Assembly: GCA_016182085.1 (NCBI GenBank)
Contig: JACOYB010000004.1
Span: 147,923-211,922, forward strand
DNA: 64,000 bases
Source of the DNA: Candidatus Magasanikiibacteriota bacterium
Lineage (GTDB): Bacteria > Patescibacteriota > Patescibacteriia > Magasanikbacterales > GWA2-37-8
Reading direction: 5' to 3'
The notes under the pieces are model-generated. The model was not told the origin of the DNA, did no database searches, and saw nothing but the letters and a program-made list of their open reading frames with translations. Every line of letters begins with the position of its first letter. Position 1 is the first letter of the stretch. A program made the position numbers and the translations under genes. Positions 2,209-59,506 of the stretch are shown piece by piece.

Positions 2209-4563
2209 ATGGGATTTAACGACTTTTTCGCTGATAGTGCGACTCGTAGTCACCAGGGCGGTTCCACCTCGGATACCGCCAAATCCGGATTCAGTCCGGC
2301 GCCGGGCAGGACAAGCCTTACGTCCGATCTTCCGGCGGCAACGCAGTGGGATCGGGAAGCGGAGCGAGCGATCGGCCGTGCAAATCGGCACTTGGATGAG
2401 TTGCCCGAATTGATTCGGGCGGCCAAGGACACCTTTGGAAATGTCCAGTTCCAAGAAGCCAAAGCGGCCATTGGCCAACTGGAGAACAAGCTCTCGCTCG
2501 CTCAAGATAACGCGGGCAGAGCCAAAGGGATTCTGGGTCATGGCAGTGTTGAGAATAAGGCGCTGCTGGAACAGCTGGATATGCTGGAGCAGCGGATTCA
2601 ATCCGCCAAAGAAGATGTGGCGCCGATTCTGGCACGGAAGCCGCCAGAGACCAAGAGTGTTCCATTCTCCCTTCCTGGGGTAGATGAGGAACCTGACGCG
2701 GTTGGTAAATGGGAGAAAGAGCAGACTGCTACCCAGGATTCCTGGGAGACCACGCAGACTGCGATCAATTCATTGCCACCCGATGAGCGAGAGCCCGTTG
2801 GGTACGAGCAGGAAAGCTGTCGGGTTCGAGGCCCGGTGGCCGACAATGCCTTTGAGGGGATCAAGCTATTCATCAAGGCTCGAGCCGAGGATGATATTGA
2901 TCACGCCTACGACATTACGTATCCTTCCTTCTTGGTCGGACCAGGCAAGGTTGGTCCGTACAAGCTGGATCCGGCGCTCAAAGGCGGAAAGGTAGTGTTC
3001 TTCCTGGCTCACCATTCGGAGCGAGGTTACCCCGAGTGGGTCATCGGCCCCGATAACGTGGAAGAGTTCAGGCAGAACATTGACGCGTACGTTGGTGCGG
3101 CTCGCACGGCGCTGCCAGGAAGCAAAAAAATTCCTGGCTCACAGGCCGATGGGGCCGACAAGTTTCCCCACGACCCCTCAATGCTTGAGCTTGAGGCGTT
3201 TGGCAAAGCGCCTTACCAGCAACAGCTGGGTGCAGGACAGAGCGAAGCCCCCTTCAACCAGCCGAAGGAACACTCCGGAATGTTCGGGGTGATGTGGGAT
3301 GGACTCACCGAAGGGATGGATGAAGCCAATGGCGGCAGTTCTGCTGTTGGCGCGCGTAATGCGCATATTCGTCTGACTGACTACGTGGAGAAGGCTCGGG
3401 AAATCGCCCGTCAACTAATGGCGGACGTAAACTCGGGAAAGATGCAGCATCTGGATGCTCGCGGCGCAGCCGTGGCCGGTCGCAACGATTTGATGCGAGG
3501 TGTGAGAGAGCGGATGTCACCATCCGCGCGCTATACCTCACAGAAGATCAAGGCAGACGATGGCATCTCCGAAGGCGCCATGGTCAAGAAGAAGGTGCCG
3601 GATCTCCTGAATGCGGCGCGAAAGGGCGGGGATGGTATGCGAGTTCTTGGTCAGGCAGGTAGTCCGGAAGATCTCCGCAAGTTCTTGGGAGAAGAATCCG
3701 AAGCCTGGTCCAAGTATCTCAAGGCTCTTGAGGCTGGCGAACCTAGCAAGTCCGTAACCTCAAAAGCTGTTCAGGAGATGAGTCAGCAGCCGTCGGTCAG
3801 CCGTGCCATCATCAATTCTGCTGGCAAGAACAACCAAACGGTAACCAGGCTTGTAAAGCTGGGTCGTGTGGCTGGTGCGGCAGGGGCCGCAGCCGGTGTT
3901 GTTGATATGGCTCAAACCATTTACAACGCCGAAGATGGAGAGCGACTCCACGTGGCTGCGGGTGAGCTCGGTGGATTTGTAGGTGGAATTATTGGCGCTG
4001 AACTTGGCGCCATGGCCGCAGTCTGGGTTGCGTCACTGATCATTTCTGGTCCGGCTGCGCCTGTCGTGCTGGTCGTGTCGCTTATCGGCGGCATGGTCGG
4101 CGGAGCGATTGGCGCGCAAGCTGGGCACGAAATGCCGAACATGGCAACTGCGGCGCTTGGCGAAGGCCTTAACGCGGTGGTTACTCCCGGATCCGGGCAA
4201 GCCGGTGGCTATGCTGGTATGCACCAGCGCAGCTCCCAGGCTGGCAAGGACAAGATGAACACCGCGGAACGGTTGCGTCAGATCCAGGACCAGCTCGATT
4301 CGGATATCAGGCAGGCTGAAACCGAAATCAAGAAGGCCAAGGATCGGGACGATCTTGACCGTTGGCAGTTGCAGCGGCTTAACCTGCTGAACTATCGCGA
4401 CCAGGTCGGCGGTATCTACCAGCTCCTGCGGGCTGGCAAGATCAACGAGACCCAGGTCTACGAACTGATGGGTGAAGAGGTCGTCAAACCCGAACCTCAG
4501 GAGTGCGCTCCTGAAGAAGAATCGGAAGGCGGGGCCAATGAAGTTTCTGAAGTTGAGCGGTAA
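2209..4563 (+). CDS. Hypothetical large protein on a high-GC island: coiled-coil N- and C-terminal regions plus a glycine-zipper transmembrane segment
   Basis: 784-aa ORF (ATG at 2209 after GGGGAGG; the ORF track extends upstream to a TTG at 2173). The locus is about 60% GC in a roughly 40% GC genome, with GC-rich third codon positions. Gly-zipper region AGAAGAAAGVV..GGFVGGIIGAELGAMAAVWVASLIISGPAAPVVLVVSLIGGMVGGAIGAQAG. Flanking coiled coils. No recognisable catalytic motif. Confidence 0.6.
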   Translation: MGFNDFFADSATRSHQGGSTSDTAKSGFSPAPGRTSLTSDLPAATQWDREAERAIGRANRHLDELPELIRAAKDTFGNVQFQEAKAAIGQLENKLSLAQDNAGRAKGILGHGSVENKALLEQLDMLEQRIQSAKEDVAPILARKPPETKSVPFSLPGVDEEPDAVGKWEKEQTATQDSWETTQTAINSLPPDEREPVGYEQESCRVRGPVADNAFEGIKLFIKARAEDDIDHAYDITYPSFLVGPGKVGPYKLDPALKGGKVVFFLAHHSERGYPEWVIGPDNVEEFRQNIDAYVGAARTALPGSKKIPGSQADGADKFPHDPSMLELEAFGKAPYQQQLGAGQSEAPFNQPKEHSGMFGVMWDGLTEGMDEANGGSSAVGARNAHIRLTDYVEKAREIARQLMADVNSGKMQHLDARGAAVAGRNDLMRGVRERMSPSARYTSQKIKADDGISEGAMVKKKVPDLLNAARKGGDGMRVLGQAGSPEDLRKFLGEESEAWSKYLKALEAGEPSKSVTSKAVQEMSQQPSVSRAIINSAGKNNQTVTRLVKLGRVAGAAGAAAGVVDMAQTIYNAEDGERLHVAAGELGGFVGGIIGAELGAMAAVWVASLIISGPAAPVVLVVSLIGGMVGGAIGAQAGHEMPNMATAALGEGLNAVVTPGSGQAGGYAGMHQRSSQAGKDKMNTAERLRQIQDQLDSDIRQAETEIKKAKDRDDLDRWQLQRLNLLNYRDQVGGIYQLLRAGKINETQVYELMGEEVVKPEPQECAPEEESEGGANEVSEVER

Positions 4564-6112: not shown

Positions 6113-6206
6113 TTTTTAATAGTGTCATCCTGAACTTGTTTCAGGATCTGTATATTTAATAACTAAAGAGATGCTGAAAACTTGTTCAGCATGACAGATA
6201 AAATAT

Positions 6207-8612: not shown

Positions 8613-8690
8613 TGTCATTCCCGCCACAGCGGGAATCCAGGTGATTCGTTCGATCGGATACTAGATTCCCGCTGTGGCGGGAATGACAAC
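8613..8690. repeat. Cargo-less MITE-like palindromic element: two inverted copies of the GTCATTCCCGCCACAGCGGGAATCCAG hairpin repeat separated by a 20-bp spacer
   Basis: Copy 1 at 8613-8640 and inverted copy at 8661-8690. Each copy is itself a hairpin (ATTCCCGC-N4-GCGGGAAT). Same family as the terminal inverted repeats of the GIY-YIG element at 56693-57062. Sits in the relA promoter region. Confidence 0.8.
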
Positions 8691-23608: not shown

Positions 23609-23783
23609 TGTCATTCTGAGTGGAACGAAGAATCCCTGTATATCATTCCCGCCAAAGCGGGAATCCAGACAATCGGATACTGGATTCCCAATTCGTTGGG
23701 AATGACAGGCGAAGATCCCTCCCGCCCGAACGTACACGTTCGGTACGGGCGGGCGTCGGCTAAAGCCTCGCTTGGGATGACAA
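23609..23783. repeat. Cluster of hairpin repeats of the GTCATTCCC...GGGAATCCAG family plus a GC-rich palindrome
   Basis: Copies at 23609-23636 (diverged), 23641-23668 and inverted 23681-23708 (spacer ACAATCGGATAC). Palindrome CCCGCCCGAACGTAC/ACGTTCGG..GGGCGGG at 23721-23753. Partial copy TTGGGATGACAA at 23772-23783. Confidence 0.8.
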
Positions 23784-23844: not shown

Positions 23845-25872
23845 ATGCCACTATTCCAACTCCACTCAAAATTTAAACCAGCTGGAGATCAGCCCGAAGC
23901 TATTAAACAATTAATGGCTAGTTTGGATAAAGGAAATCGTTATCAAACTTTGCTCGGGGTAACCGGTTCGGGTAAGACTTTTACTGTCGCCAATCTTATT
24001 ACGCAATTTGATCAGCCGGTCTTGGTAATGGCGCCCAACAAAGCCTTGGCCGCGCAGCTGTACCGTGAATACAAAAATTTCTTTCCCGAAAATTCGGTGA
24101 ATTATTTTGTTTCTTATTACGATTATTATCAGCCAGAGGCATATATGCCAACCAGCGATACCTATATAGAAAAAGAATCAATGATAAATGAAGAGATAGA
24201 CAGGTTGCGCCACCAGGCCACCAGCGCGCTCGTGTCTCGCAAAGATGTAATTGTGGTTGCCTCTGTATCCTGTATATATAACTTGGGTGTGCCAAATAAT
24301 TATTTTGAATCAGCCGTGCATTTGGAAATAGGGCAGCCGATGGTGCGAGCCGATCTTATGCGACAGCTGATAAAAATTCAATTTGCGCGCACGCCCGGAG
24401 CTTTAGAGAGAGGTAAGTTTCGTGTGCGGGGTGATGTGTTTGAAATAGCGCCAGCGGCCGATAAATTTTTGTATAGAATAGAAATTAAAGACCAAAGAGT
24501 GGCCGAGATTTCTGTAATAGATGCTCTAACAAAAGTTGTAAAAGAAAATCTAAAAGAAGCGGTAATATTTCCGGTAAAACATTTTGTGTCTTCAGAGCCG
24601 CAAATGAAGGAAGCGCTCAAAGAAATAAAAGCCGAACTAAAAGACCGCTTGGCATATTTTAAGAAAAAAGAATTGTATTTGGAAGCAGAACGGCTAGAGC
24701 GTCGTACTCGATATGATTTGGAAATGTTAAAAACTTTGGGTTTTTGTCATGGAATAGAAAATTATTCTCGGCATTTGGCCGGCAAGCTGGCCGGAGAAGC
24801 GCCGGACACTCTATTGGCATATTTTCCGTGGAAAGACGGCAAACCGGATTTTTTAACCATTATGGACGAATCACATATTGGCTTGCCCCAAGTGCGAGGT
24901 ATGTATGCCGGAGACAGAAGCCGTAAAGAAGTGCTGGCTCAGTATGGCTGGAGATTGCCTTCGGCTTTGGATAACCGCCCGCTTAAATTTGATGAATTTG
25001 AAAAAAGAGTCGGGCAAGTGGTATTTACTTCGGCTACTCCGGGGGATTTTGAAATGACCAAATCCAGCACTATTGCCGAACAAGTTATTCGCCCAACAGG
25101 ACTAATTGATCCGCCAATAGAAGTCCGCCGCGCCTCGCCGACAATAAACCCCACCCCTTTCCCCTCCCCTTATAGGGGAGGGAACGACACCAATAGTGTT
25201 GTTTCCCCCGCTCCGGTTCTCTCCCCTACAAGGGGAGAGATAAAGAGAGGGGTTTACAATGGCCAAGTAAATGATGTAATGCAAGAAATTGAAGGAATAG
25301 TTAAAAGAGGCGAACGAGCGATTATAAACGTGCTCACCAAAAAAATGGCCGAGGAATTATCGGAGTTTTTGCTTCAAAGAAAATTCGCGGTAAATTACCT
25401 GCATTCTGATGTAAAAACTTTGCAGCGCACGGAAATTTTGAATGATTTTCGTCTCGGAAAGTTTAGTGTGCTAATTGGCGTAAACTTATTGCGTGAAGGT
25501 TTGGATTTACCGGAAGTAACTTTGGTAGCGATTATGGATGCGGACCGAGAAGGGTTTTTGCGCAGCGAAGAGTCGCTTATGCAGACTATGGGCCGCGCCG
25601 CTAGAAATGTGAGTGGTAAAGTTATTTTGTATGCGGATACGCTTACTAAATCAATAAAAAATGCGATGAAGGAAGTGGAAAGACGCCGTAAGTTGCAATT
25701 GGAATATAATGAGAAACACGGTATTACGCCACAAACAACTCATAAAGCGATAGAACAGTTTTTGGATATTCCGGATGCGCCTGATCCCGCTAATTCTAGA
25801 TCAGGTAAAATTAGTACGGAGCCAGATCGTAGAGGTAAAAGATCAATTAAAAAGCAAACGGAGAAAAAGTAG
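23845..25872 (+). CDS. uvrB: Excinuclease ABC subunit B (UvrB) carrying an in-frame insertion of about 40 aa derived from palindromic repeat DNA
   Basis: MPLFQLHSKFKPAGDQPEAI start. Helicase motifs GVTGSGKT and DESH. UvrB C-terminal region. The segment ...VRRASPTINPTPFPSPYRGGNDTNSVVSPAPVLSPTRGEIKRGVYNG-QVNDVMQEI has no counterpart in canonical UvrB and is encoded by two CCCCT/AGGGG hairpins at about 25135-25262. Confidence 0.9.
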   Translation: MPLFQLHSKFKPAGDQPEAIKQLMASLDKGNRYQTLLGVTGSGKTFTVANLITQFDQPVLVMAPNKALAAQLYREYKNFFPENSVNYFVSYYDYYQPEAYMPTSDTYIEKESMINEEIDRLRHQATSALVSRKDVIVVASVSCIYNLGVPNNYFESAVHLEIGQPMVRADLMRQLIKIQFARTPGALERGKFRVRGDVFEIAPAADKFLYRIEIKDQRVAEISVIDALTKVVKENLKEAVIFPVKHFVSSEPQMKEALKEIKAELKDRLAYFKKKELYLEAERLERRTRYDLEMLKTLGFCHGIENYSRHLAGKLAGEAPDTLLAYFPWKDGKPDFLTIMDESHIGLPQVRGMYAGDRSRKEVLAQYGWRLPSALDNRPLKFDEFEKRVGQVVFTSATPGDFEMTKSSTIAEQVIRPTGLIDPPIEVRRASPTINPTPFPSPYRGGNDTNSVVSPAPVLSPTRGEIKRGVYNGQVNDVMQEIEGIVKRGERAIINVLTKKMAEELSEFLLQRKFAVNYLHSDVKTLQRTEILNDFRLGKFSVLIGVNLLREGLDLPEVTLVAIMDADREGFLRSEESLMQTMGRAARNVSGKVILYADTLTKSIKNAMKEVERRRKLQLEYNEKHGITPQTTHKAIEQFLDIPDAPDPANSRSGKISTEPDRRGKRSIKKQTEKK

Positions 25873-30362: not shown

Positions 30363-31223
30363 ATGAAAATTTTTTTTACAGTTTTTCTCGTACTGCTCAT
30401 AATAGGTTTGACCTCTCTGTTTAGTTGGTATTATTTCGGCAGGCCATCCAATTTACCAATTACTACGGACAATATTCTAACTTCTACTCCAATGGTAGAA
30501 AATAAAAAGGGATTAGTTCTAGATAATCTAAAAGAAAACGACACGATTGCCTCGCCATTTAAAATTACCGGCTATACAAATGGAGAAGGGTGGGGAGGAT
30601 TTGAAGGACAAGTGGGCAACGTTAGTTTATATGATATAAATAATAACCTGTTGGATTTTAAGCCGCTTACGGCGGTCACTGACTGGATGACATCTACGGT
30701 ATATTTTGAAGCCAATTTGGAATATACAACGAGCGACGAGCGAGGATGGGTGGTATTTAAAAATGAAAATCCAAGCGGTGATCCGGCCAGAGATAAAGAA
30801 ATTGATATTCCGGTAAAATTAGTGCCTACCGATGAAATTATGAAAGTGCAGGCATATTTTGGTAATAGCAATTTGGATCCGGAAGTAACTTGTGAAAAGG
30901 TTTTTCCGTTAGCCCGCGTCGTGCCCAAAACCATAGCTGTGGCCAGAGTTGCTCTGGAGGAGCTTTTAAAGGGGGTGTCTTTTGAAGAAGCTAATTCCGG
31001 TTATCAAACTAGTATCAATTCCGGCGTGCAAATTAATAGTTTAAGCATTGAAAACGGTGTGGCCAAAGTTGATTTTAGCGCGGAGCTCCAGAATGGAGTG
31101 GCCGGAGCTTGTAAAGTAAACATGATTCGTTTGCAGATAGAGCAAACACTTAAACAATTTTCTACCGTAAACAGCGTGGTAATTTCCATAAATGGTAATA
31201 CCGAAGATATTCTGCAACCATGA
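30363..31223 (+). CDS. GerMN-domain (LpqB/GerM-like) secreted/membrane protein
   Basis: N-terminal TM/signal. VQAYFGNSNLDPEVTCEKVFPLARVVPKTIAVARVALEELLKG matches the GerMN motif. Stop overlaps the uvrC start (ATGA). Confidence 0.6.
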   Translation: MKIFFTVFLVLLIIGLTSLFSWYYFGRPSNLPITTDNILTSTPMVENKKGLVLDNLKENDTIASPFKITGYTNGEGWGGFEGQVGNVSLYDINNNLLDFKPLTAVTDWMTSTVYFEANLEYTTSDERGWVVFKNENPSGDPARDKEIDIPVKLVPTDEIMKVQAYFGNSNLDPEVTCEKVFPLARVVPKTIAVARVALEELLKGVSFEEANSGYQTSINSGVQINSLSIENGVAKVDFSAELQNGVAGACKVNMIRLQIEQTLKQFSTVNSVVISINGNTEDILQP

Positions 31224-32377
31224 GCTTAAAAGATACAGTTAAACAATTTCCTTTAACCCCCGGGGTTTATATTTGGCGGGATAAAAATAACAAACCCCTG
31301 TATGTTGGCCGAGCCACATCTCTTCGTCGGCGTGTTTTGCAATACTTTAGAAACGATATAGATCCGCGCATCGGTGAAATGGTGTCGCTGGCGCGTACGG
31401 TGGAATATCGCTGCACCGATACGGTTTTGGAATCAGTTATACTTGAGGCCAACATGATTAAAGAATACTGGCCAAAGTATAATATAGAAGAAAAAGATGA
31501 CAAATCTTTTATTTTTTTGGTTATTCCCAAAACCGATTTTCCCAAACCAATTATGGTGCGGGGCAGGGAATTGCAGAATTTTCCAGTTCCAGCAGACAGG
31601 GTATTTGGCCCATACCAAAGCTACACAGCTTTAAAAACAGTTCTAAAAATCGTACGTCGAATTTTTCCGTATAGTACTTGCAAGCCCACCGGCAAGCCTT
31701 GTTTTGATTATCAGATCGGGTTATGTCCGGGTGTGTGCGTGGGTGCGATAAGTAAAAAAGATTACCAAAAAAATATCAGTAATTTATTATTGCTGTTTAG
31801 GGGGGAGAGTAAAAAATTGTTAAAGAAGCTCTCCAAAGAAAATCCCGAGGCCGCGATACATTTAAAACATATTCAGGATGTTACGCTTATTTCCCGCGAA
31901 GATTTGGATGTGAGCGGGCATTTTAACAGGATTGAAGGATACGACATATCCCATTTTGCCGGCAAAGAAGTATATGGTTCAATGGTCGTGTTTACCAGTG
32001 GTCAGCCGGACAAAAGCCAGTATAGATTGTTTAAGATAAAGACCGTTACCAATAATGATTTGGACGCGCTAAAAGAAATGTTGGAACGAAGGCTCAAGCA
32101 TACGGAATGGCCAAAACCGGATTTGATTTTAATTGACGGGGGTAAGCCGCAGATAGATTATTTAAACAAGACAATGCAAGAGTTTCAGGTAAAATGTTTG
32201 TGGCTTGGACTATCCAAATTAAACGGTGATCATTTGGTATTTCCGGCAGGAACAAAAAATGTATTCAAGGATTTGGCAGAGAGTATAAAGAGAACATTGC
32301 AGCAGGTGCGGGACGAAGCGCATCGGTTTGCCAATCGCGGCCGCAGCCGCAGATATTTTAAAGATAATTTAAAGTAG
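31220..32377 (+). CDS. uvrC: Excinuclease ABC subunit C (UvrC), minimal 385-aa form: GIY-YIG plus Cys-rich region plus RNase H-like endonuclease domain; lacks the UvrB-interacting and HhH domains
   Basis: N-terminal GIY-YIG (PGVYIWRDKNNKPLYVGRATSLRRRVLQYF). CKPTGKPCFDYQIGLCPGVC. C-terminal RIEGYDISHFAGKEVYGSMVVF...LILIDGGKPQ endonuclease domain. Confidence 0.75.
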   Translation: MSLKDTVKQFPLTPGVYIWRDKNNKPLYVGRATSLRRRVLQYFRNDIDPRIGEMVSLARTVEYRCTDTVLESVILEANMIKEYWPKYNIEEKDDKSFIFLVIPKTDFPKPIMVRGRELQNFPVPADRVFGPYQSYTALKTVLKIVRRIFPYSTCKPTGKPCFDYQIGLCPGVCVGAISKKDYQKNISNLLLLFRGESKKLLKKLSKENPEAAIHLKHIQDVTLISREDLDVSGHFNRIEGYDISHFAGKEVYGSMVVFTSGQPDKSQYRLFKIKTVTNNDLDALKEMLERRLKHTEWPKPDLILIDGGKPQIDYLNKTMQEFQVKCLWLGLSKLNGDHLVFPAGTKNVFKDLAESIKRTLQQVRDEAHRFANRGRSRRYFKDNLK

Positions 32378-39187: not shown

Positions 39188-39219
39188 AATTCAAGCCAGA
39201 TTGATTATTTTTGCAAACA

Positions 39220-39279
39220 CCCTCTCGCCTCGCTGTGGCGGGCGAGGGGTTCAGATCTCGTCCCGACGCGAGTCGGGAC
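39220..39279. repeat. Two GC-rich hairpins, the first sharing the CCCGCCACAGCG core of the GTCATTCCC repeat family
   Basis: CCCTCTCGCCTCGCTGTGGCGGGCGAGGGG (39220-39249) and GTCCCGACgcgaGTCGGGAC (39260-39279), between the pilB-like gene and recG. Confidence 0.6.
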
Positions 39280-39330
39280 TCCGATGTGTTGCCAAAATAA
39301 TCAATCCGGCTTTTTATTTTTCTTTACAGT

Positions 39331-55660: not shown

Positions 55661-56692
55661 ATGCAGGATAAGTTACAACAAATAAAAACCGAAGCCTTGC
55701 TGGCGCTTAAATCCGTTAAGGATAAGATTCAGCTGGAGGAATTGGAAATTAAGTTGTTGGGCCGCAAAGGCGGGCAGCTTACCGAACTTCTTAAAGGATT
55801 AAAAGATTTAAGCGAAGATGCAAAGCGAGAGGTGGGGCAGCTGGCCAATGAAATAAAAAAAGATATTGAAAGCGCGCTTGCAAAAAAGAAAACTGAGTTT
55901 GTGCAGCAAGAAATGGCGGGGTTATTGGAAAAAGAAAATTTAGATATCACGCAGCCGTCCTTACCGCCGAAAGTGTTGGGACATTTACACCCCAATACTA
56001 TTATCCAAAATGATTTGGAAGATTTATTTACTTCCATGGGTTTTATGGTTTTGGATGGGCCGGAACTAGAAAGCGAATATTACAATTTTAGCGCCTTAAA
56101 TATTCCGGCCGACCATCCGGCGCGCGATATGCAGGATACTTTTTATATAAAAGGCCATAGCGATTGGGTGATGAGAACGCACACCTCGCCGATGCAGGTG
56201 CGGGCCATGCAAAAATATGGCACGCCACTGCGAATGATTGTGCCGGGGAAGTGTTTCCGCAACGAAGCAACTGACGTGCGCCATGAACACACATTTTATC
56301 AGTTAGAAGGAGTGGTCGTGGATAAAGATATAAGTTTTGCCCACATGAAAGGCGTGTTGGAGTCGGTTTTTAAACATATTTTTGGCCCGGAAACTAAAAT
56401 TCGTCTGCGTCCGAAATTTTATCCGTTTGTAGAGCCGGGAGTAAATGGTGAAGTGACTTGTTACTTGTGCAAAGGAAAAGGTTGTCGTTTATGCAAGCAA
56501 ACCGGCTGGCTGGAAGTTTTTGGCGCCGGTATGATCCATCCTAATGTGCTAAAGGAAGGCGATATTGATCCAAATATATACCAGGGTTTTGCCTTTGGTT
56601 TTGGGCTTACTCGTTTGGCTATGCTTAAATATGGCATAGAAGATATCCGTCTTTTGGAAAGCGGGAATATGAAATTCCTTGAGCAATTTTAG
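55661..56692 (+). CDS. pheS: Phenylalanine--tRNA ligase alpha subunit
   Basis: Class II core motifs (FRNEATDVRHEHTFYQLEG, GFAFGFGLTRLAM). N-terminal coiled coil. Confidence 0.95.
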   Translation: MQDKLQQIKTEALLALKSVKDKIQLEELEIKLLGRKGGQLTELLKGLKDLSEDAKREVGQLANEIKKDIESALAKKKTEFVQQEMAGLLEKENLDITQPSLPPKVLGHLHPNTIIQNDLEDLFTSMGFMVLDGPELESEYYNFSALNIPADHPARDMQDTFYIKGHSDWVMRTHTSPMQVRAMQKYGTPLRMIVPGKCFRNEATDVRHEHTFYQLEGVVVDKDISFAHMKGVLESVFKHIFGPETKIRLRPKFYPFVEPGVNGEVTCYLCKGKGCRLCKQTGWLEVFGAGMIHPNVLKEGDIDPNIYQGFAFGFGLTRLAMLKYGIEDIRLLESGNMKFLEQF

Positions 56693-57062
56693 GTTGTCAT
56701 TCCCGTCGCAGCGGGAATCCAGTCGATATGAATCAACGCAAAAATTATTATGTATATATTTTGGCAAGTAAAAGAAATGGCACTTTATATATTGGAGTAA
56801 CAAATAGTTTGATCAGACGAATTTATGAACACAAGCAAAATTTAATTGCTGGGTTCACAAAAAAATACGGAGTTCATAATCTAGTTTATTATGAAACTTA
56901 CGATAGTATAGACACTGCGATTGCCAGAGAAAAAGAAATTAAAAAATGGAGAAGAAAACCTAAAATTGACCTAATAGAAAAAGATAATTTAAATTGGCGT
57001 GATTTGTATAAGGAATTAAATCCAGCTTAGCGACTGGATTCCCGCTGCGGCGGGAATGACAA
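56693..57062 (+). mobile_element. Compact GIY-YIG nuclease element bounded by about 30-bp terminal inverted repeats of the GTCATTCCC...GGGAATCCAG hairpin family, inserted between pheS and pheT
   Basis: Left IR GTTGTCATTCCCGTCGCAGCGGGAATCCAGTCG (56693-56725) and right IR CGACTGGATTCCCGCTGCGGCGGGAATGACAA (57031-57062) are reverse complements with 1-2 mismatches. The ORF occupies the whole interior. Confidence 0.8.
56728..57030 (+). CDS. GIY-YIG domain nuclease (small YhbQ/COG2827-like)
   Basis: YYVYILASKRNGTLYIGVTNSLIRRIYEH (GIY...YIG), conserved R, E in EKEIKKW. 100 aa. Confidence 0.85.
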   Translation: MNQRKNYYVYILASKRNGTLYIGVTNSLIRRIYEHKQNLIAGFTKKYGVHNLVYYETYDSIDTAIAREKEIKKWRRKPKIDLIEKDNLNWRDLYKELNPA

Positions 57063-57070
57063 AACATTAT

Positions 57071-59506
57071 ATGTTAATAAGTTATCAGTGGTTAAAAAAA
57101 TACGTTAACCTTCCGGATTCTATTACGGCCGAAGAAGTGGCGGCAAGGCTAAAGGCTAGTACCGTGGAGGTAGAGAATGTTGAATTTCAAGGAAAAAACT
57201 TGGAAAATGTTGTGGTCGGGAAAGTTTTGTCTGCCGAAAAACATCCTAATGCCGATAAATTAAAATTATGTAAAGTTGATGTTGGAAATGAAAAGTTACA
57301 AATTGTCTGCGGCGGCAGCAATGTAGTGGCGGGCATGTTGGTGGCGCTGGCCAAAGTGGGCGCAAAAGTAAAATGGCATGGCGAAGGCGAATTAATAGAA
57401 TTAAAACCAGCCAAGATTCGCGATGTAGAGTCCGCCGGTATGATCTGCGCTTCTACCGAAATTGGTTTGGCCGAACTTTTTCCACTCAAAGATGAAAAAG
57501 AAATAATGGACATCACTCATCTAAAAGCCAGGCCAGGAACACCTTTAGCACAAGTGTTAGGGTTAAATGATTCTGTTTTGGAAATAGATAATAAATCACT
57601 GAGCAACCGGCCGGATTTATGGGGGCATTATGGCATAGCCAGAGAAGTGGCGGTGCTTTTTAATAAAAATTTAAAGGAATATAAAACAGATAAAATTAAG
57701 CCAGGTAAGGGGGGCGCAGTTAAAGTAGAAGTTGAAAATACCAAACTCTGTCCGAGGTATGTGGCCGTGGCCGTATCGGGAGTAAAAGTAGGTCCATCGC
57801 CGGAGTGGCTGAAAAAAAGTTTGTCAGCTATTGGATTACGTTCCATAAACAATATCGTAGATATTACCAACTTCGTTATGATGGATCTGGGGCAGCCGCT
57901 CCATGCTTTTGACGCGGCAAAAGTTGTCGACACTACGATTGTGGTTCGCGCCGCCAAAGATGGTGAGGAATTTATTACCCTTGATGGCGAGAAAAGAAAA
58001 CTAGATTCTTCCATGCTTATGATTGCCGACCAGTCAAAGGCCTTGGCCATTGCCGGAGTAATGGGAGGCTTGGACAGTGGTATAACCGACCAAACTAACA
58101 CGATTATTTTTGAATCAGCTAATTTTGATGCTGCTTCCATACGCCACACTTCAACCAAACTTGGGCTGCGCAGCGACGCTTCGGCTCGATTTGAAAAAAG
58201 TTTAGATCCAAGTCTTGCCATGCCGGCTTTACAAAAAGCCGTAGAATTAGTGCTGCAAATTTGTCCCGGAGCAAAAGTAGCCGGCAAAGTTGTGGAAGCG
58301 TCAAAGTTTAGCGTAAAACAAGGTCCGATCATGCTAAGTATGGGTCTCTTGGAGAAAAAAATCGGGACAAAAATATCTAAAAAAGAAGTAGAAAGAATTT
58401 TGACTCAGCTTGGTTTTGAGGTAAAGAGCAAAGGTGAAGGATTTGCAGTTAAAATTCCCACTTGGCGCGCCACTAAAGATATTTCCATTGCCGAAGATTT
58501 GGTGGAAGAAATCCTGCGTATGTATGGTTATGACAAGATAGAATCGTCGCTGCCAATGTTTGCCATAAACCCTCCCGAAGAAAATAAATTGAGAAAACTG
58601 GAACGGGAAGTAAAAAATATTTTGGCAAATTCTTTATCTTATACCGAAGTCTATAATTATTCTTTTGTTAGCGGCGAGCAGATAGCAAAAATTGGGGACG
58701 ATCCCGCAAAGTATATTGCTTTAGATAATCCGCTTTCAAAAGAAAAACCATATTTGCGCCGATGCCTGCTTCTTAATTTGCTGGAAAATTTAGAACAGAA
58801 TCAAGCAGGAAATAATACGTTAAAGTTATTTGAAATTGGCAGCGTGTTTCGCGAAGAAGACTCTGGTTTGCGTACAGAATCTAATAAAGACAGCTTGTTG
58901 CCTGGACAAGATACCTGGTTTACGGCTGTGTATATGGAGAAGAAAAATAATACGCCTTTTTGGGCGGCCAGAGGCGTGGTAGAAACACTGTCAAAAACTA
59001 TATTGCCCGGTATTGTAGTTTCTAAATCCGGCGCAGACGGCTTTGCCAGACACCCATCCCGTTCGGCTGGACTTATGATGGGAGAAAAAAATGTGGGATC
59101 TTTATATGAGTTACATCCTAAAGTAGGGAGCAATTTTGGATTGGAAGGACGGGTAGGAGTAGTAAAAATAAATTTAAGCTTCGTGGCCGATCTGCAACAA
59201 TTTGAAACAACATATGCGCCAGTACCGGCATTTCCGGCTGTGGAAAGAGATTTAGCGATTATCGTTAAAAAGAACATAGCCCACCAAGATATTTTGTCAG
59301 CGTTATTAGGAGCCGATCCGCTGCTTCAGTCCGTTAGTTTGTTTGATGTATACGAGGGCGCAAATGTTAGCGCGGAATACAAAAGTATGGCCTACCATTT
59401 TATTTATAGAAATAATGAGCGAACTTTGGTAACTGAAGAAGTGGAAAAAGCCCATCAAAAAATAATTGATATCTTAAAAAAGAGTTTTAACGCCGAAGTA
59501 CGGTAA
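57071..59506 (+). CDS. pheT: Phenylalanine--tRNA ligase beta subunit
   Basis: MLISYQWLKKYV start. tRNA-binding OB domain, B3/B4 and B5 domains, C-terminal FDX-ACB. The track start at 57056 lies inside the right IR of the GIY-YIG element; ATG 57071 fits the family N-terminus. Confidence 0.93.
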   Translation: MLISYQWLKKYVNLPDSITAEEVAARLKASTVEVENVEFQGKNLENVVVGKVLSAEKHPNADKLKLCKVDVGNEKLQIVCGGSNVVAGMLVALAKVGAKVKWHGEGELIELKPAKIRDVESAGMICASTEIGLAELFPLKDEKEIMDITHLKARPGTPLAQVLGLNDSVLEIDNKSLSNRPDLWGHYGIAREVAVLFNKNLKEYKTDKIKPGKGGAVKVEVENTKLCPRYVAVAVSGVKVGPSPEWLKKSLSAIGLRSINNIVDITNFVMMDLGQPLHAFDAAKVVDTTIVVRAAKDGEEFITLDGEKRKLDSSMLMIADQSKALAIAGVMGGLDSGITDQTNTIIFESANFDAASIRHTSTKLGLRSDASARFEKSLDPSLAMPALQKAVELVLQICPGAKVAGKVVEASKFSVKQGPIMLSMGLLEKKIGTKISKKEVERILTQLGFEVKSKGEGFAVKIPTWRATKDISIAEDLVEEILRMYGYDKIESSLPMFAINPPEENKLRKLEREVKNILANSLSYTEVYNYSFVSGEQIAKIGDDPAKYIALDNPLSKEKPYLRRCLLLNLLENLEQNQAGNNTLKLFEIGSVFREEDSGLRTESNKDSLLPGQDTWFTAVYMEKKNNTPFWAARGVVETLSKTILPGIVVSKSGADGFARHPSRSAGLMMGEKNVGSLYELHPKVGSNFGLEGRVGVVKINLSFVADLQQFETTYAPVPAFPAVERDLAIIVKKNIAHQDILSALLGADPLLQSVSLFDVYEGANVSAEYKSMAYHFIYRNNERTLVTEEVEKAHQKIIDILKKSFNAEVR

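Follow-up and report, generated by a model that had tools for sequence, protein, structure and literature searches.

Between pheS and pheT in the 64-kb stretch of DNA analysed here as a whole (the window) lies ssn, an ORF of 100 aa enclosed by two inverted hairpin repeats whose tags point outward (Table 1). The inverted arms (56694-56728 and 57028-57062) are 35 nt each, are 94% complementary and have 299 nt between them, and each takes the tagged-hairpin form TGTC-ATTCCCGY-loop-GCGGGAAT-CCAG. Both arms, taken in isolation, are predicted to fold as DNA hairpins with an 8-bp stem and a 4-nt loop (-6.6 and -8.8 kcal/mol). These results bear out an earlier note on this DNA, which had described a GIY-YIG gene framed by inverted repeats that are themselves hairpins and had placed the element between pheS and pheT. 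That note had also put the start of pheT inside the right repeat, at the ATG of the ORF track at 57056; the actual start is the ATG at 57071 (MLISYQWLKKYV), as in all relatives, and thus the repeat and pheT do not overlap. Searches with the hairpin core ATTCCCGYNGCNGCGGGAAT, allowing up to three mismatches, gave 10 strand-matches, representing five hairpins, in the window versus 0.03 expected from shuffled sequences. A scan of the window at Rfam gathering thresholds detected a tRNA-Leu only, with no RNA family at the repeats.

Table 1. Coordinates of the cassette, its flanking genes and the other tagged-hairpin sites of the window
Feature	Position	Strand	Basis or remark
Whole SRM-ssn-SRM cassette, TGTCAT...ATGACA, 367 nt	56695..57061	+	Similarity to the cassettes of L081 and L167, at other loci, stops at TGTCAT/ATGACA
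Left SRM hairpin, TGTC-ATTCCCGT-CGCA-GCGGGAAT-CCAG, tag outward	56695..56722	+	
Right SRM hairpin, TGTC-ATTCCCGC-CGCA-GCGGGAAT-CCAG (read on the - strand), tag outward	57034..57061	-	
ssn, GIY-YIG nuclease of 100 aa with a single domain, Ssn family	56728..57030	+	Pfam, SsnA homology
pheS, left flank of the insertion	55661..56692	+	Stop codon 2 nt from the cassette
pheT, right flank	57071..59506	+	ATG 57071 start, 9 nt past the cassette
Cargo-less SRM doublet, tags outward, 20-nt spacer, relA/spoT-gyrA intergenic region	8613..8688		
Tagged-element cluster between an NHL-repeat gene and uvrB	23610..23781		
Variant tagged-hairpin doublet (TGTCAT-CCTGAAC.../TGTCAT-GCTGAAC...), parA-parB spacer	6123..6196		Overlooked in the earlier note

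The GIY-YIG domain of Pfam (PF01541, E=3e-17) covers residues 6-77 of the Ssn protein and is its sole domain. In a BLASTP comparison with a 94-aa SsnA orthologue from N. gonorrhoeae (L166:1525-1809, a gonococcal chromosome mis-filed in PLSDB), the window protein was 55% identical over 89 aa without gaps, and the E-value of 8e-39 lies far below the E<1e-10 by which SsnA homologues were delimited by Chenal et al. 2025 (PMC11893778). The gonococcal orthologue has Y6, Y17 and E64, the residues that were mutated in that study (PMC11893778), and these align with the catalytic Y10, Y21 and E68 of the window protein, which are invariant in 23 homologues. For an AlphaFold model of Ssn (pLDDT 90), the top PDB matches were the GIY-YIG folds of UPF0213 proteins (BH0048 and EF2693), Slx1 and UvrC-N, while the sequence match to UPF0213 was weak (E=1.7e-6). 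An NCBIfam search returned no specific model and only a sub-threshold group I intron endonuclease match; in CDD, the Ssn nucleases (SsnA) correspond to cd10448, GIY-YIG_unchar_3 (PMC11893778). A search for phage homologues found none. The window holds one copy of ssn; a second GIY-YIG match, at 31265-31510, was considered as another and is UvrC.

Classified by its sequence, the cassette belongs to the Ssn/SRM system (Chenal et al. 2025; PMC11893778), here in a CPR host, Candidatus Magasanikbacteria, an assignment based on the 55% identity to SsnA, the retained catalytic Y/Y/E and a repeat of the dRS3/NTS/SRM type. The locus is thus very probably best explained as an SRM-ssn-SRM cassette, that is, an Ssn-family gene flanked by two inverted cognate hairpins, with SRM hairpins on both its 5' side (56695-56722, + strand) and its 3' side (57034-57061, - strand). 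The arms fit the dRS3 pattern ATTCCC-N8-GGGAAT exactly, as the earlier note had recognized, and they also fit the CGTC-1 REP in having a TGTC tag, an 8-bp stem beginning with AT, a 4-nt loop and a CCA tail. The published NTS (CGTCATTCCCGCGMAVGCGGGAATCYRG) and degenerate SRM search patterns have zero literal matches in the window. The arms depart from the NTS at the first tag base and three loop-proximal positions only, and it is their CCGCAG/CCACAG loop region that causes the NTS/SRM regular expressions to miss them; we attribute this to a limit of the search pattern and do not take it to exclude the arms from the family.

This system was already known, as the GIY-YIG family Ssn and its NTS/SRM repeats were described by Chenal et al. 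2025 (Nat Commun; PMC11893778). Ssn binds the single-stranded form of the hairpin and introduces a nick a few nucleotides to its 5' side; this ssDNA-specific activity, absent on dsDNA and RNA, was shown for four homologues (those of Nm, N. elongata, N. wadsworthii and Wolbachia). The sole biological role demonstrated is to restrict transforming ssDNA in Neisseria, where Ssn reduces the integration of NTS-bearing DNA (PMC11893778). The window cassette shares with the published examples a single-domain protein of ~95-100 aa, the same catalytic Y/Y/E spacing, a hairpin on each side of the gene with an ATTCCC-N8-GGGAAT core, a YGTC tag and a CCAG tail, and dispersed intergenic copies. It differs in its host, which is one of the CPR/Patescibacteria whereas the paper emphasizes Pseudomonadati, in being inserted in a pheS-pheT spacer of 1-3 nt, and in the outward direction of its tags; those of the gonococcal ssnA locus face the gene. 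The NTS flanking ssnA in Neisseria are thus oppositely oriented, so that the outward-tag geometry is not universal. The CGTC-1 REP, which is the neisserial dRS3, likewise has a TGTC/CGTC tag, stem, loop and CCA tail, and occurs mostly as inverted dimers in intergenic DNA. No dedicated enzyme was found for the CGTC REPs by Di Nocera et al. (BMC Genomics 2013; PMC3733652), whereas a partner gene is evident both in the window and in Chenal et al. 2025.

The earlier note had asked whether GIY-YIG genes of this type are always bounded by the repeats. Using a tag-plus-stem detector calibrated on control loci in place of the published NTS/SRM patterns, we found outward-tagged hairpins on both sides of the gene at 46 of 75 homologous loci (61%), spread over many phyla, and a hairpin on at least one side at 70 of the 75 (93%). 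The corresponding background at control loci was 0.05% for both sides and 9.8% for at least one side, and hairpin density was 5.9/kb beside ssn versus 0.09/kb in control loci. Compensatory changes were seen in six of the eight stem pairs, and neighbouring hairpin pairs in 80 ssn loci were inverted in 55 cases versus tandem in seven. Ssn proteins that are ~70% identical occur in many phyla, and the recurrence in dozens of phyla of the same outward-tagged hairpin/gene/hairpin layout around homologues supports a true partnership between gene and hairpins, as opposed to a coincidence.

These data bear directly on the reading, anticipated in the earlier note, that the repeats are ordinary terminators or RNA-stabilizing stem-loops unrelated to the gene, to which an assembly artefact may be added. 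In favour of this reading, the hairpins are GC-rich and intergenic, but neither arm qualified as an intrinsic terminator, read in either direction, and the lone terminator-like match comes from another stem, on the - strand, which overlaps only the tail of the right arm. Further evidence against it is that the hairpin has a conserved tag and tail outside the stem and is strongly associated with ssn across phyla, in a specific orientation and over a near-zero background; the pheS-ssn-pheT arrangement is also repeated in an independent JGI assembly. The association counts, the control-locus densities and the independent assembly effectively refute an explanation that we regard as scarcely credible.

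Comparison with relatives, for which the earlier note had called, revealed both filled and empty sites. The whole cassette is present in the pheS-pheT spacer of the window and of one relative (L085), but is absent from four close relatives (L086-L089; PheS 66-83% identical), in which the pheS-pheT gap is 1-3 nt. The same spacer holds a different-variant ssn/SRM cassette in a more distant relative (L093) and a bare doublet in L157. Related cassettes (Ssn 69-79% identical) are located at other loci in other genomes, L081 and L167 among them; two 91%-identical copies occur in one deltaproteobacterial MAG, and the unit repeated in L026/L030 exceeds the cassette in size, with 17-bp terminal repeats of its own. 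The filled and empty pheS-pheT sites, the other occupants of this spacer and the related cassettes elsewhere show that the cassette behaves as a discrete unit of insertion or deletion. Ssn is 82% identical between the window and L085, and PheS 80%. The PheS proteins of the window, L085, L086 and L087 show a star-like pattern of identities (78-83%), so that a gain of the cassette is not distinguishable from its precise loss. Target-site duplications, also proposed earlier, were not visible at the junctions of the window, L081 and L167 cassettes or against the empty sites, a result that leaves room for a duplication of 1-2 nt.

How such a unit could move may be considered from the activity of the characterized homologues. 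By analogy with them, the window protein would bind its folded hairpin only in ssDNA, would recognize the YGTC tag on the 5' side, the sequence of the stem and the C that directly follows the stem 3', and would then nick a few nucleotides 5' of the tag. From the positions reported by Chenal et al. 2025 (PMC11893778), the nicks are predicted at ~56690-56694 on the + strand for the left end and at ~57062-57066 on the - strand for the right end; as both tags point outward, the predicted nick sites fall at the cassette boundaries, one per strand. SRM hairpins would be nicked by Ssn whenever single-stranded DNA arises, as in replication or DNA uptake, and SRM-bearing ssDNA may be restricted by such nicking. 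Host replication and repair could then duplicate or delete the SRM doublets and the cassette, with no strand transfer carried out by Ssn itself. A more novel reading, possible but less likely than not, is that these cassettes are mobile elements of a new mechanistic class, in which a GIY-YIG hairpin nickase, aided by host replication or repair, copies or excises the cassette and the doublets. The cassette itself is most likely a selfish or semi-domesticated module.

A possible but far from secure alternative is an autonomous GIY-YIG transposon, in which Ssn is the transposase, the hairpins are terminal inverted repeats and the doublets are mobilized non-autonomous derivatives resembling REPINs or MITEs. 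This idea was also raised by the authors of the Ssn paper, whose Discussion likens NTS-ssnA-NTS to an IS and to the IS200/IS605-RAYT/REP/BIME systems (PMC11893778). It agrees with the presence or absence of the cassette among close relatives, the three independent occupants of the pheS-pheT spacer, the related cassettes at different loci, the 91%-identical pair in the deltaproteobacterial MAG, the strong bias of adjacent hairpins to the inverted arrangement, the coincidence of predicted nick sites with cassette ends, and the wide spread among phyla of Ssn proteins with ~70% identity. The parallel with REP/REPIN-RAYT elements extends to a nuclease gene within inverted hairpin repeats, to cargo-less inverted doublets elsewhere, and to recognition of an ssDNA hairpin with cutting beside it, which for Ssn was shown in homologues. 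However, the RAYT enzyme is an HUH Y1 tyrosine transposase whereas Ssn is an unrelated GIY-YIG hydrolase, and the tag is GTAG in those systems but TGTC, of the CGTC type, in the window. The predicted nicks of the window cassette are also on opposite strands, so that single-strand excision in the style of IS200/IS605 is not possible. GIY-YIG nucleases hydrolyse DNA and are not known to form covalent intermediates or to join or transfer strands. Transposition lacks a demonstrated case, no target-site duplication was found at three junction pairs, the 64-kb window has a single ssn copy, and the larger L026/L030 unit with its own terminal repeats indicates that another mobilizing agent may act. 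The earlier proposal of a REP/RAYT-like GIY-YIG mobile system thus holds for the gene/hairpin partnership and the insertion unit; its novelty does not, given the published system (PMC11893778), and the role of Ssn as a transposase is hypothetical.

Rather unlikely, in our view, is a purely domesticated host function, in which Ssn and the dispersed SRMs act as a system for ssDNA restriction or recombination control, as in Neisseria transformation, and the cassette no longer moves. The flanking hairpins would then serve in regulation or recognition. The only role with experimental proof is a lower integration of transforming DNA that carries NTS (PMC11893778), and both the one ssn copy in the window and the similar divergence of Ssn and PheS from L085, which fits vertical co-descent at the pheS-pheT locus, are as expected from this reading. 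It leaves unexplained, however, the joint presence or absence of the gene and both arms in relatives, the different ssn/SRM variants and bare doublets in the same spacer of other lineages, and the related cassettes inside unrelated operons. A homing-type spread, in which ssn entered the spacer of a pre-existing doublet, or converts empty doublets by recombination between the arms, with the repeats as its target, is improbable. The ORF does occupy the exact position of the 11-20-nt spacer in empty doublets, and the L157 spacer holds a bare doublet, but the empty sites of the closest relatives are without any doublet, and a comparison of doublet spacer ends with the inner cassette junctions found no convincing similarity. 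Ssn has the catalytic fold of GIY-YIG homing endonucleases of the I-TevI type and of UPF0213/YhbQ, but it is without the extra DNA-binding domain of the former, is intergenic, outside any intron or phage context (the search for phage homologues being negative), and its substrate, as shown for homologues, is an ssDNA hairpin and not duplex DNA.

As the Ssn/SRM partnership has already been published, the main value of the present analysis is confirmation and context. We show that the system occurs in a CPR organism with a reduced genome, wedged into the essential pheST operon, that close relatives gain or lose the gene and both hairpins together as one block, and that other ssn/SRM variants and a bare doublet have independently occupied the pheS-pheT spacer. 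This provides comparative evidence on a question arising from the 2025 paper, namely whether NTS-ssnA-NTS is mobile and whether Ssn spreads CGTC-type REPs. If the reading as a nickase-driven mobile element were true, Ssn would be the long-missing mobilizing enzyme of these REPs, and such an event would have left its natural record in the filled and empty pheS|pheT alleles of Magasanikbacteria. These clean alleles offer exact substrates for biochemical or genetic testing.

Apart from the cassette, cargo-less inverted pairs are present at 8613-8688 and 23643-23705, in agreement with the earlier note. The former may fold, as ssDNA, into a long hairpin (predicted -34 kcal/mol), and the latter, an inner doublet with an 11-nt spacer, has a clean 8-bp hairpin in both arms. 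Two diverged copies had also been suggested. The element at 23610-23638 (+ strand) combines a TGTCAT tag and a CC tail with a stem of 5 bp, ATTCT/AGAAT; its predicted fold (-1.1 kcal/mol) does not surpass that of shuffled sequence, which makes it no more than a possible diverged SRM copy. The sequence at 39220-39249 was rejected, being without tag and tail and part of a different GC-rich double hairpin in a 24-nt inverted repeat. An outer tagged element at 23712-23781 (- strand), overlooked previously, has a large structured loop, and the 23.6-kb site would be a nested + + - - cluster if the outer pair 23610-23638 / 23712-23781 belongs to the family. The window contains ~10 tagged hairpins in total, as five pairs at four sites, and all family copies within it are in +/- pairs. 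At least three hairpin stem variants occur alongside the one ssn, and such a combination sits against the published sequence-dependent specificity.

The 100-aa GIY-YIG ORF of the window, here ssn (Pfam PF01541, E=3e-17), is bracketed by two 35-nt arms with 94% complementarity, which bears out the earlier note's reading of an ORF framed by inverted hairpin repeats at 56693-57062. Each arm is a hairpin with a TGTC tag, an 8-bp stem (ATTCCCGY/GCGGGAAT), a 4-nt loop and a CCAG tail, and the two are predicted to fold as ssDNA with -6.6 and -8.8 kcal/mol. Searching the window with the hairpin core yields 10 strand-matches at five hairpins, versus 0.03 expected. The arms fit the dRS3 description exactly, as the earlier note had proposed, and also that of the CGTC-1 family, under which the same repeat was catalogued earlier among the 'CGTC-tagged REPs', which are mostly inverted dimers and 'apparently lack a dedicated transposase' (Di Nocera 2013, PMC3733652). 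Half of the neisserial dRS3 repeats form a longer oriented hairpin, NTS (CGTCATTCCCGCGMAVGCGGGAATCYRG), and NTS-like 'SRM' flank homologues of NMB0047/NMV_0044 (ssnA) across bacteria, with at least one SRM in 71% and SRM on both sides in 42% (Chenal et al., Nat Commun 2025, PMC11893778). Our arms do not match the literal NTS/SRM patterns of that study because the first base is T rather than C and because of the CCGCAG/CCACAG loop region, a mismatch that we ascribe to limits of the search pattern itself. Prediction of intrinsic terminators picked out neither arm in either direction, the sole terminator-like call being a different - strand stem that overlaps only the right-arm tail. As the ORF begins 5 nt past the left-arm tail, expression of ssn probably depends on read-through from pheS. 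The pheT start, formerly placed at 57056 inside the right repeat, is the ATG at 57071, giving a PheT N-terminus as in relatives (ML(I/V)SY.. in every one compared); the right repeat is thus free of overlap with pheT.

SsnA (94 aa, CDD cd10448) consists of a single GIY-YIG domain. It binds the hairpin solely in its ssDNA form, with the cut a few nucleotides to the 5' side; cutting is lost in Y6A, Y17A and E64A mutants, and three more Ssn homologues act alike (PMC11893778). A Candidatus Magasanikbacteria MAG encodes, on a 410-kb contig, a 'GIY-YIG nuclease family protein' with the same sequence as the window Ssn, which has at least 7992 homologues at E<=1e-5 in a protein search, with proteins of 65-75% identity in Latescibacterota, Verrucomicrobiota, Kiritimatiellae, Gemmatimonadota, cyanobacteria, delta-, beta- and alphaproteobacteria, Chloroflexi, Planctomycetes, Omnitrophota and several CPR groups. 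A Neisseria orthologue was taken from PLSDB, where complete gonococcal chromosomes stand mis-filed as plasmids and almost unannotated. The match there (E=2e-28) is a 94-aa ORF (MQPAVYILASQRNGTLYIGV...) carrying Y6, Y17 and E64, the residues mutated by Chenal et al., and is therefore the SsnA orthologue. It shares 55% identity with the window Ssn over 89 gapless residues (BLASTP, E=8e-39), and the catalytic residues align with window Y10, Y21 and E68, which are invariant in the family alignment. In an AlphaFold model (pLDDT 90) the protein adopts the GIY-YIG fold, with UPF0213 BH0048, Slx1 and UvrC-N as best PDB matches; no Ssn structure is deposited in the PDB. We take the window gene to be a CPR member of the Ssn/SRM system described in 2025, which makes the cassette (SRM-ssn-SRM) a new member of a known system.

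Partnership of gene and hairpin is general. Across 80 homologous ssn loci from species-representative genomes, the flanks show a recurrent layout of GTCATTCCCGCGAAAGCGGGAATCCAG, ~5-30 nt, ATG...stop, ~5-30 nt, CTGGATTCCCGC....GCGGGAATGAC. The earlier note had asked whether such genes are bounded by the hairpins: among loci with complete flanks, an outward tagged hairpin (tag on the side away from the gene) stands on both sides in 46/75 (61%) and on at least one side in 70/75 (93%), versus 0.05% and 9.8% for 2000 random windows of 78 control loci. Within 130 nt of ssn there are 5.9 hairpins per kb, compared with 0.56/kb in the remainder of these loci and 0.09/kb in control loci. Hairpins have a preferred orientation both upstream (44 + versus 15 -) and downstream (43 - versus 18 +), and adjacent hairpins form 55 inverted pairs versus 7 tandem. 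Stems vary by compensatory change (TCCCGC, TCCTGC, TCCGGC, CCCCGC and others), with double-sided changes in 6/8 stem pairs (41 cells versus 5.9 expected), the stem set having been selected for at least 7/8 paired positions, a choice that inflates the percentage paired but leaves the ratio between double changes and broken pairs unaffected. In contrast to the window and most other loci, the gonococcal ssnA locus (L166, N. gonorrhoeae NZ_CP119140.1, 2.17 Mb) has flanking NTS tags directed toward the gene.

We compared filled and empty sites using PheS as query, which retrieved 80 pheS loci from metagenomes. In the closest empty-site relatives (L086, L087, L088 and L089; PheS 83, 80, 72-73 and 66% identical to that of the window) the pheS stop and pheT ATG are 1-3 nt apart (...TTTTAA|AT|ATGTTAATA...), in agreement with the proposed insertion between normally adjacent genes. 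The cassette is present in the window and in L085, an independent JGI assembly (PheS 80%, Ssn 82% identical), with common junctions (left TAG-GT / TAA-GGA; right ATGACA-AAACA(TT/AA)AT-ATG). No target-site duplication was seen at the three cassette junction pairs compared. PheS identities among window, L085, L086 and L087 are star-like (78-83%), so that a single gain followed by precise loss is indistinguishable from other histories. The same spacer is occupied independently in other CPR lineages: L093 holds a different cassette (Ssn 49% identical) with arms of another stem variant (TGTCATTGCGAGC.../...GCTCGCAATGACA), and L157 a bare doublet. In another Magasanikbacteria genome (L081-L084), a cassette with a 79%-identical Ssn lies between unrelated genes, and similarity to the window stops exactly at TGTCAT...ATGACA; a further cassette (Ssn 69-72% identical, matched ATCCCCGC arms) lies between RND-type adaptor and ABC-transporter ATPase genes. 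The filled and empty sites, together with these ends of similarity, indicate that 56695-57061 behaves as a discrete insertion/deletion block that can insert into AT-rich spacers devoid of hairpins immediately before a start codon. Filled and empty pheS-pheT alleles among relatives are what is new here, the Ssn/SRM partnership being known from PMC11893778.

The earlier note's likening of this layout to REP/RAYT systems holds as a structural insight and had been drawn in PMC11893778, whose Discussion compares NTS-ssnA-NTS to an insertion sequence and to IS200/IS605-RAYT, REP and BIME, with mobility only as a hypothesis; we found no paper demonstrating transposition of these repeats or cassettes. 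Our comparative evidence is supportive of a mobile-element reading of such cassettes, and we consider the cassette likely to be a mobile unit. That Ssn is the agent of movement is more doubtful, and we lean marginally against it. As shown for its homologues, window Ssn would recognise the folded hairpin on ssDNA, including its 5' tag and its 3' C, and would nick 5' of the tag. With outward tags, the predicted nicks (~56690-56694 on + and ~57062-57066 on -) coincide with the cassette ends, one per strand, whereas both IS200/IS605 cuts fall on one strand. Enzymes of the GIY-YIG type hydrolyse DNA and are not known to join strands, so that movement of any kind has to draw on host replication or repair. 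Candidate routes would be nick-primed copying, fork breakage with repair from another SRM, and slipped or recombinational loss between arms. An additional or alternative role in ssDNA restriction is plausible by analogy with N. meningitidis, where SsnA reduces integration of transforming DNA bearing NTS (PMC11893778).

One deltaproteobacterial MAG (L026 2884-3398 and L030 2884-3371) has two ssn cassettes, 91% identical, inside a larger 515-bp unit that runs past the hairpins, is bounded by a 17-bp terminal inverted repeat distinct from them (CATAAGCGCTAACTTAA / TTAAGTTAGCGCTTATG) and is flanked by ~11-12-nt direct repeats (CCCCCCAGCCC; GGGTTGGAAGGG/GGGTTGGGAGGG). The outer repeat also surrounds ssn in L021, L034 and L042. 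This larger unit hints at a second layer of mobility.

Positions of ssn and tagged-hairpin elements (doublet, inverted hairpin pair lacking ssn)
Element	Sequence	Position	Setting	Earlier note
ssn ORF (+)	window	56728-57030		
Left arm	window	56694-56728		
Right arm	window	57028-57062		
Doublet, tags outward	window	8613-8688	20-nt spacer	
Doublet, tags outward	window	23643-23705	11-nt spacer	
Variant doublet	window	6123-6196	fills parA-parB spacer	overlooked
Outer tagged element	window	23712-23781		overlooked
Different cassette	L093	~3545-3940	pheS-pheT spacer; PheS 61-63% identical to window	
Bare abutting doublet (GTCATTTCGACC..GAAATCTAGACTTC..GAAGTGAC)	L157	~3548-3600	pheS-pheT spacer	

The empty repeat pairs reported near 8613 and 23641 are both genuine doublets, and the whole first unit is able to fold as an ssDNA hairpin (-34 kcal/mol, z = -9.3). 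The variant doublet consists of the tagged hairpin TGTCATCCTGAAC..GTTTCAGGATCTG and its partner on the - strand; no cognate ssn variant was found within the window. A supposed diverged copy at 23610-23638 retains both tag and tail, yet shuffled sequence is predicted to fold equally well, and this element is only a possible copy; as a + element it would, with the outer - element, make a nested + + - - cluster at the 23.6-kb site. Tagged hairpins of the window comprise at least three stem variants versus a single ssn, even though recognition, as published, depends on sequence.

The other supposed diverged copy, at 39220-39249, has neither tag nor tail and differs in structure. At 39193-39312, downstream of a 576-aa ORF, a 24-nt inverted repeat (AAGCCAGATTGATTATTTTTGCAA / TTGCCAAAATAATCAATCCGGCTT) surrounds two GC-rich hairpins (-24 kcal/mol); this palindromic element is outside the SRM family and possibly a MITE or terminator. 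Apart from ssn, the window has a single GIY-YIG match, which belongs to UvrC (31220-32377), a short protein of 385 aa that reaches the TIGR00194 cut-off but spans no more than the N-terminal portion of the model's 574 positions. Finally, uvrB (23845-25872) carries an in-frame insertion of ~43 aa at 25129-25257 (..IEVRRA-SPTINPTPFPSPYRGGNDTNSVVSPAPVLSPTRGEIKRGVY-NGQVNDV..), which no solved UvrB structure contains. Two palindromic repeats (25145-25189 and 25199-25259), the first with a TGTCGTTCCC tag on the - strand, encode this insertion, which is similar to intragenic REP/RPE insertions that have been described in repair genes.
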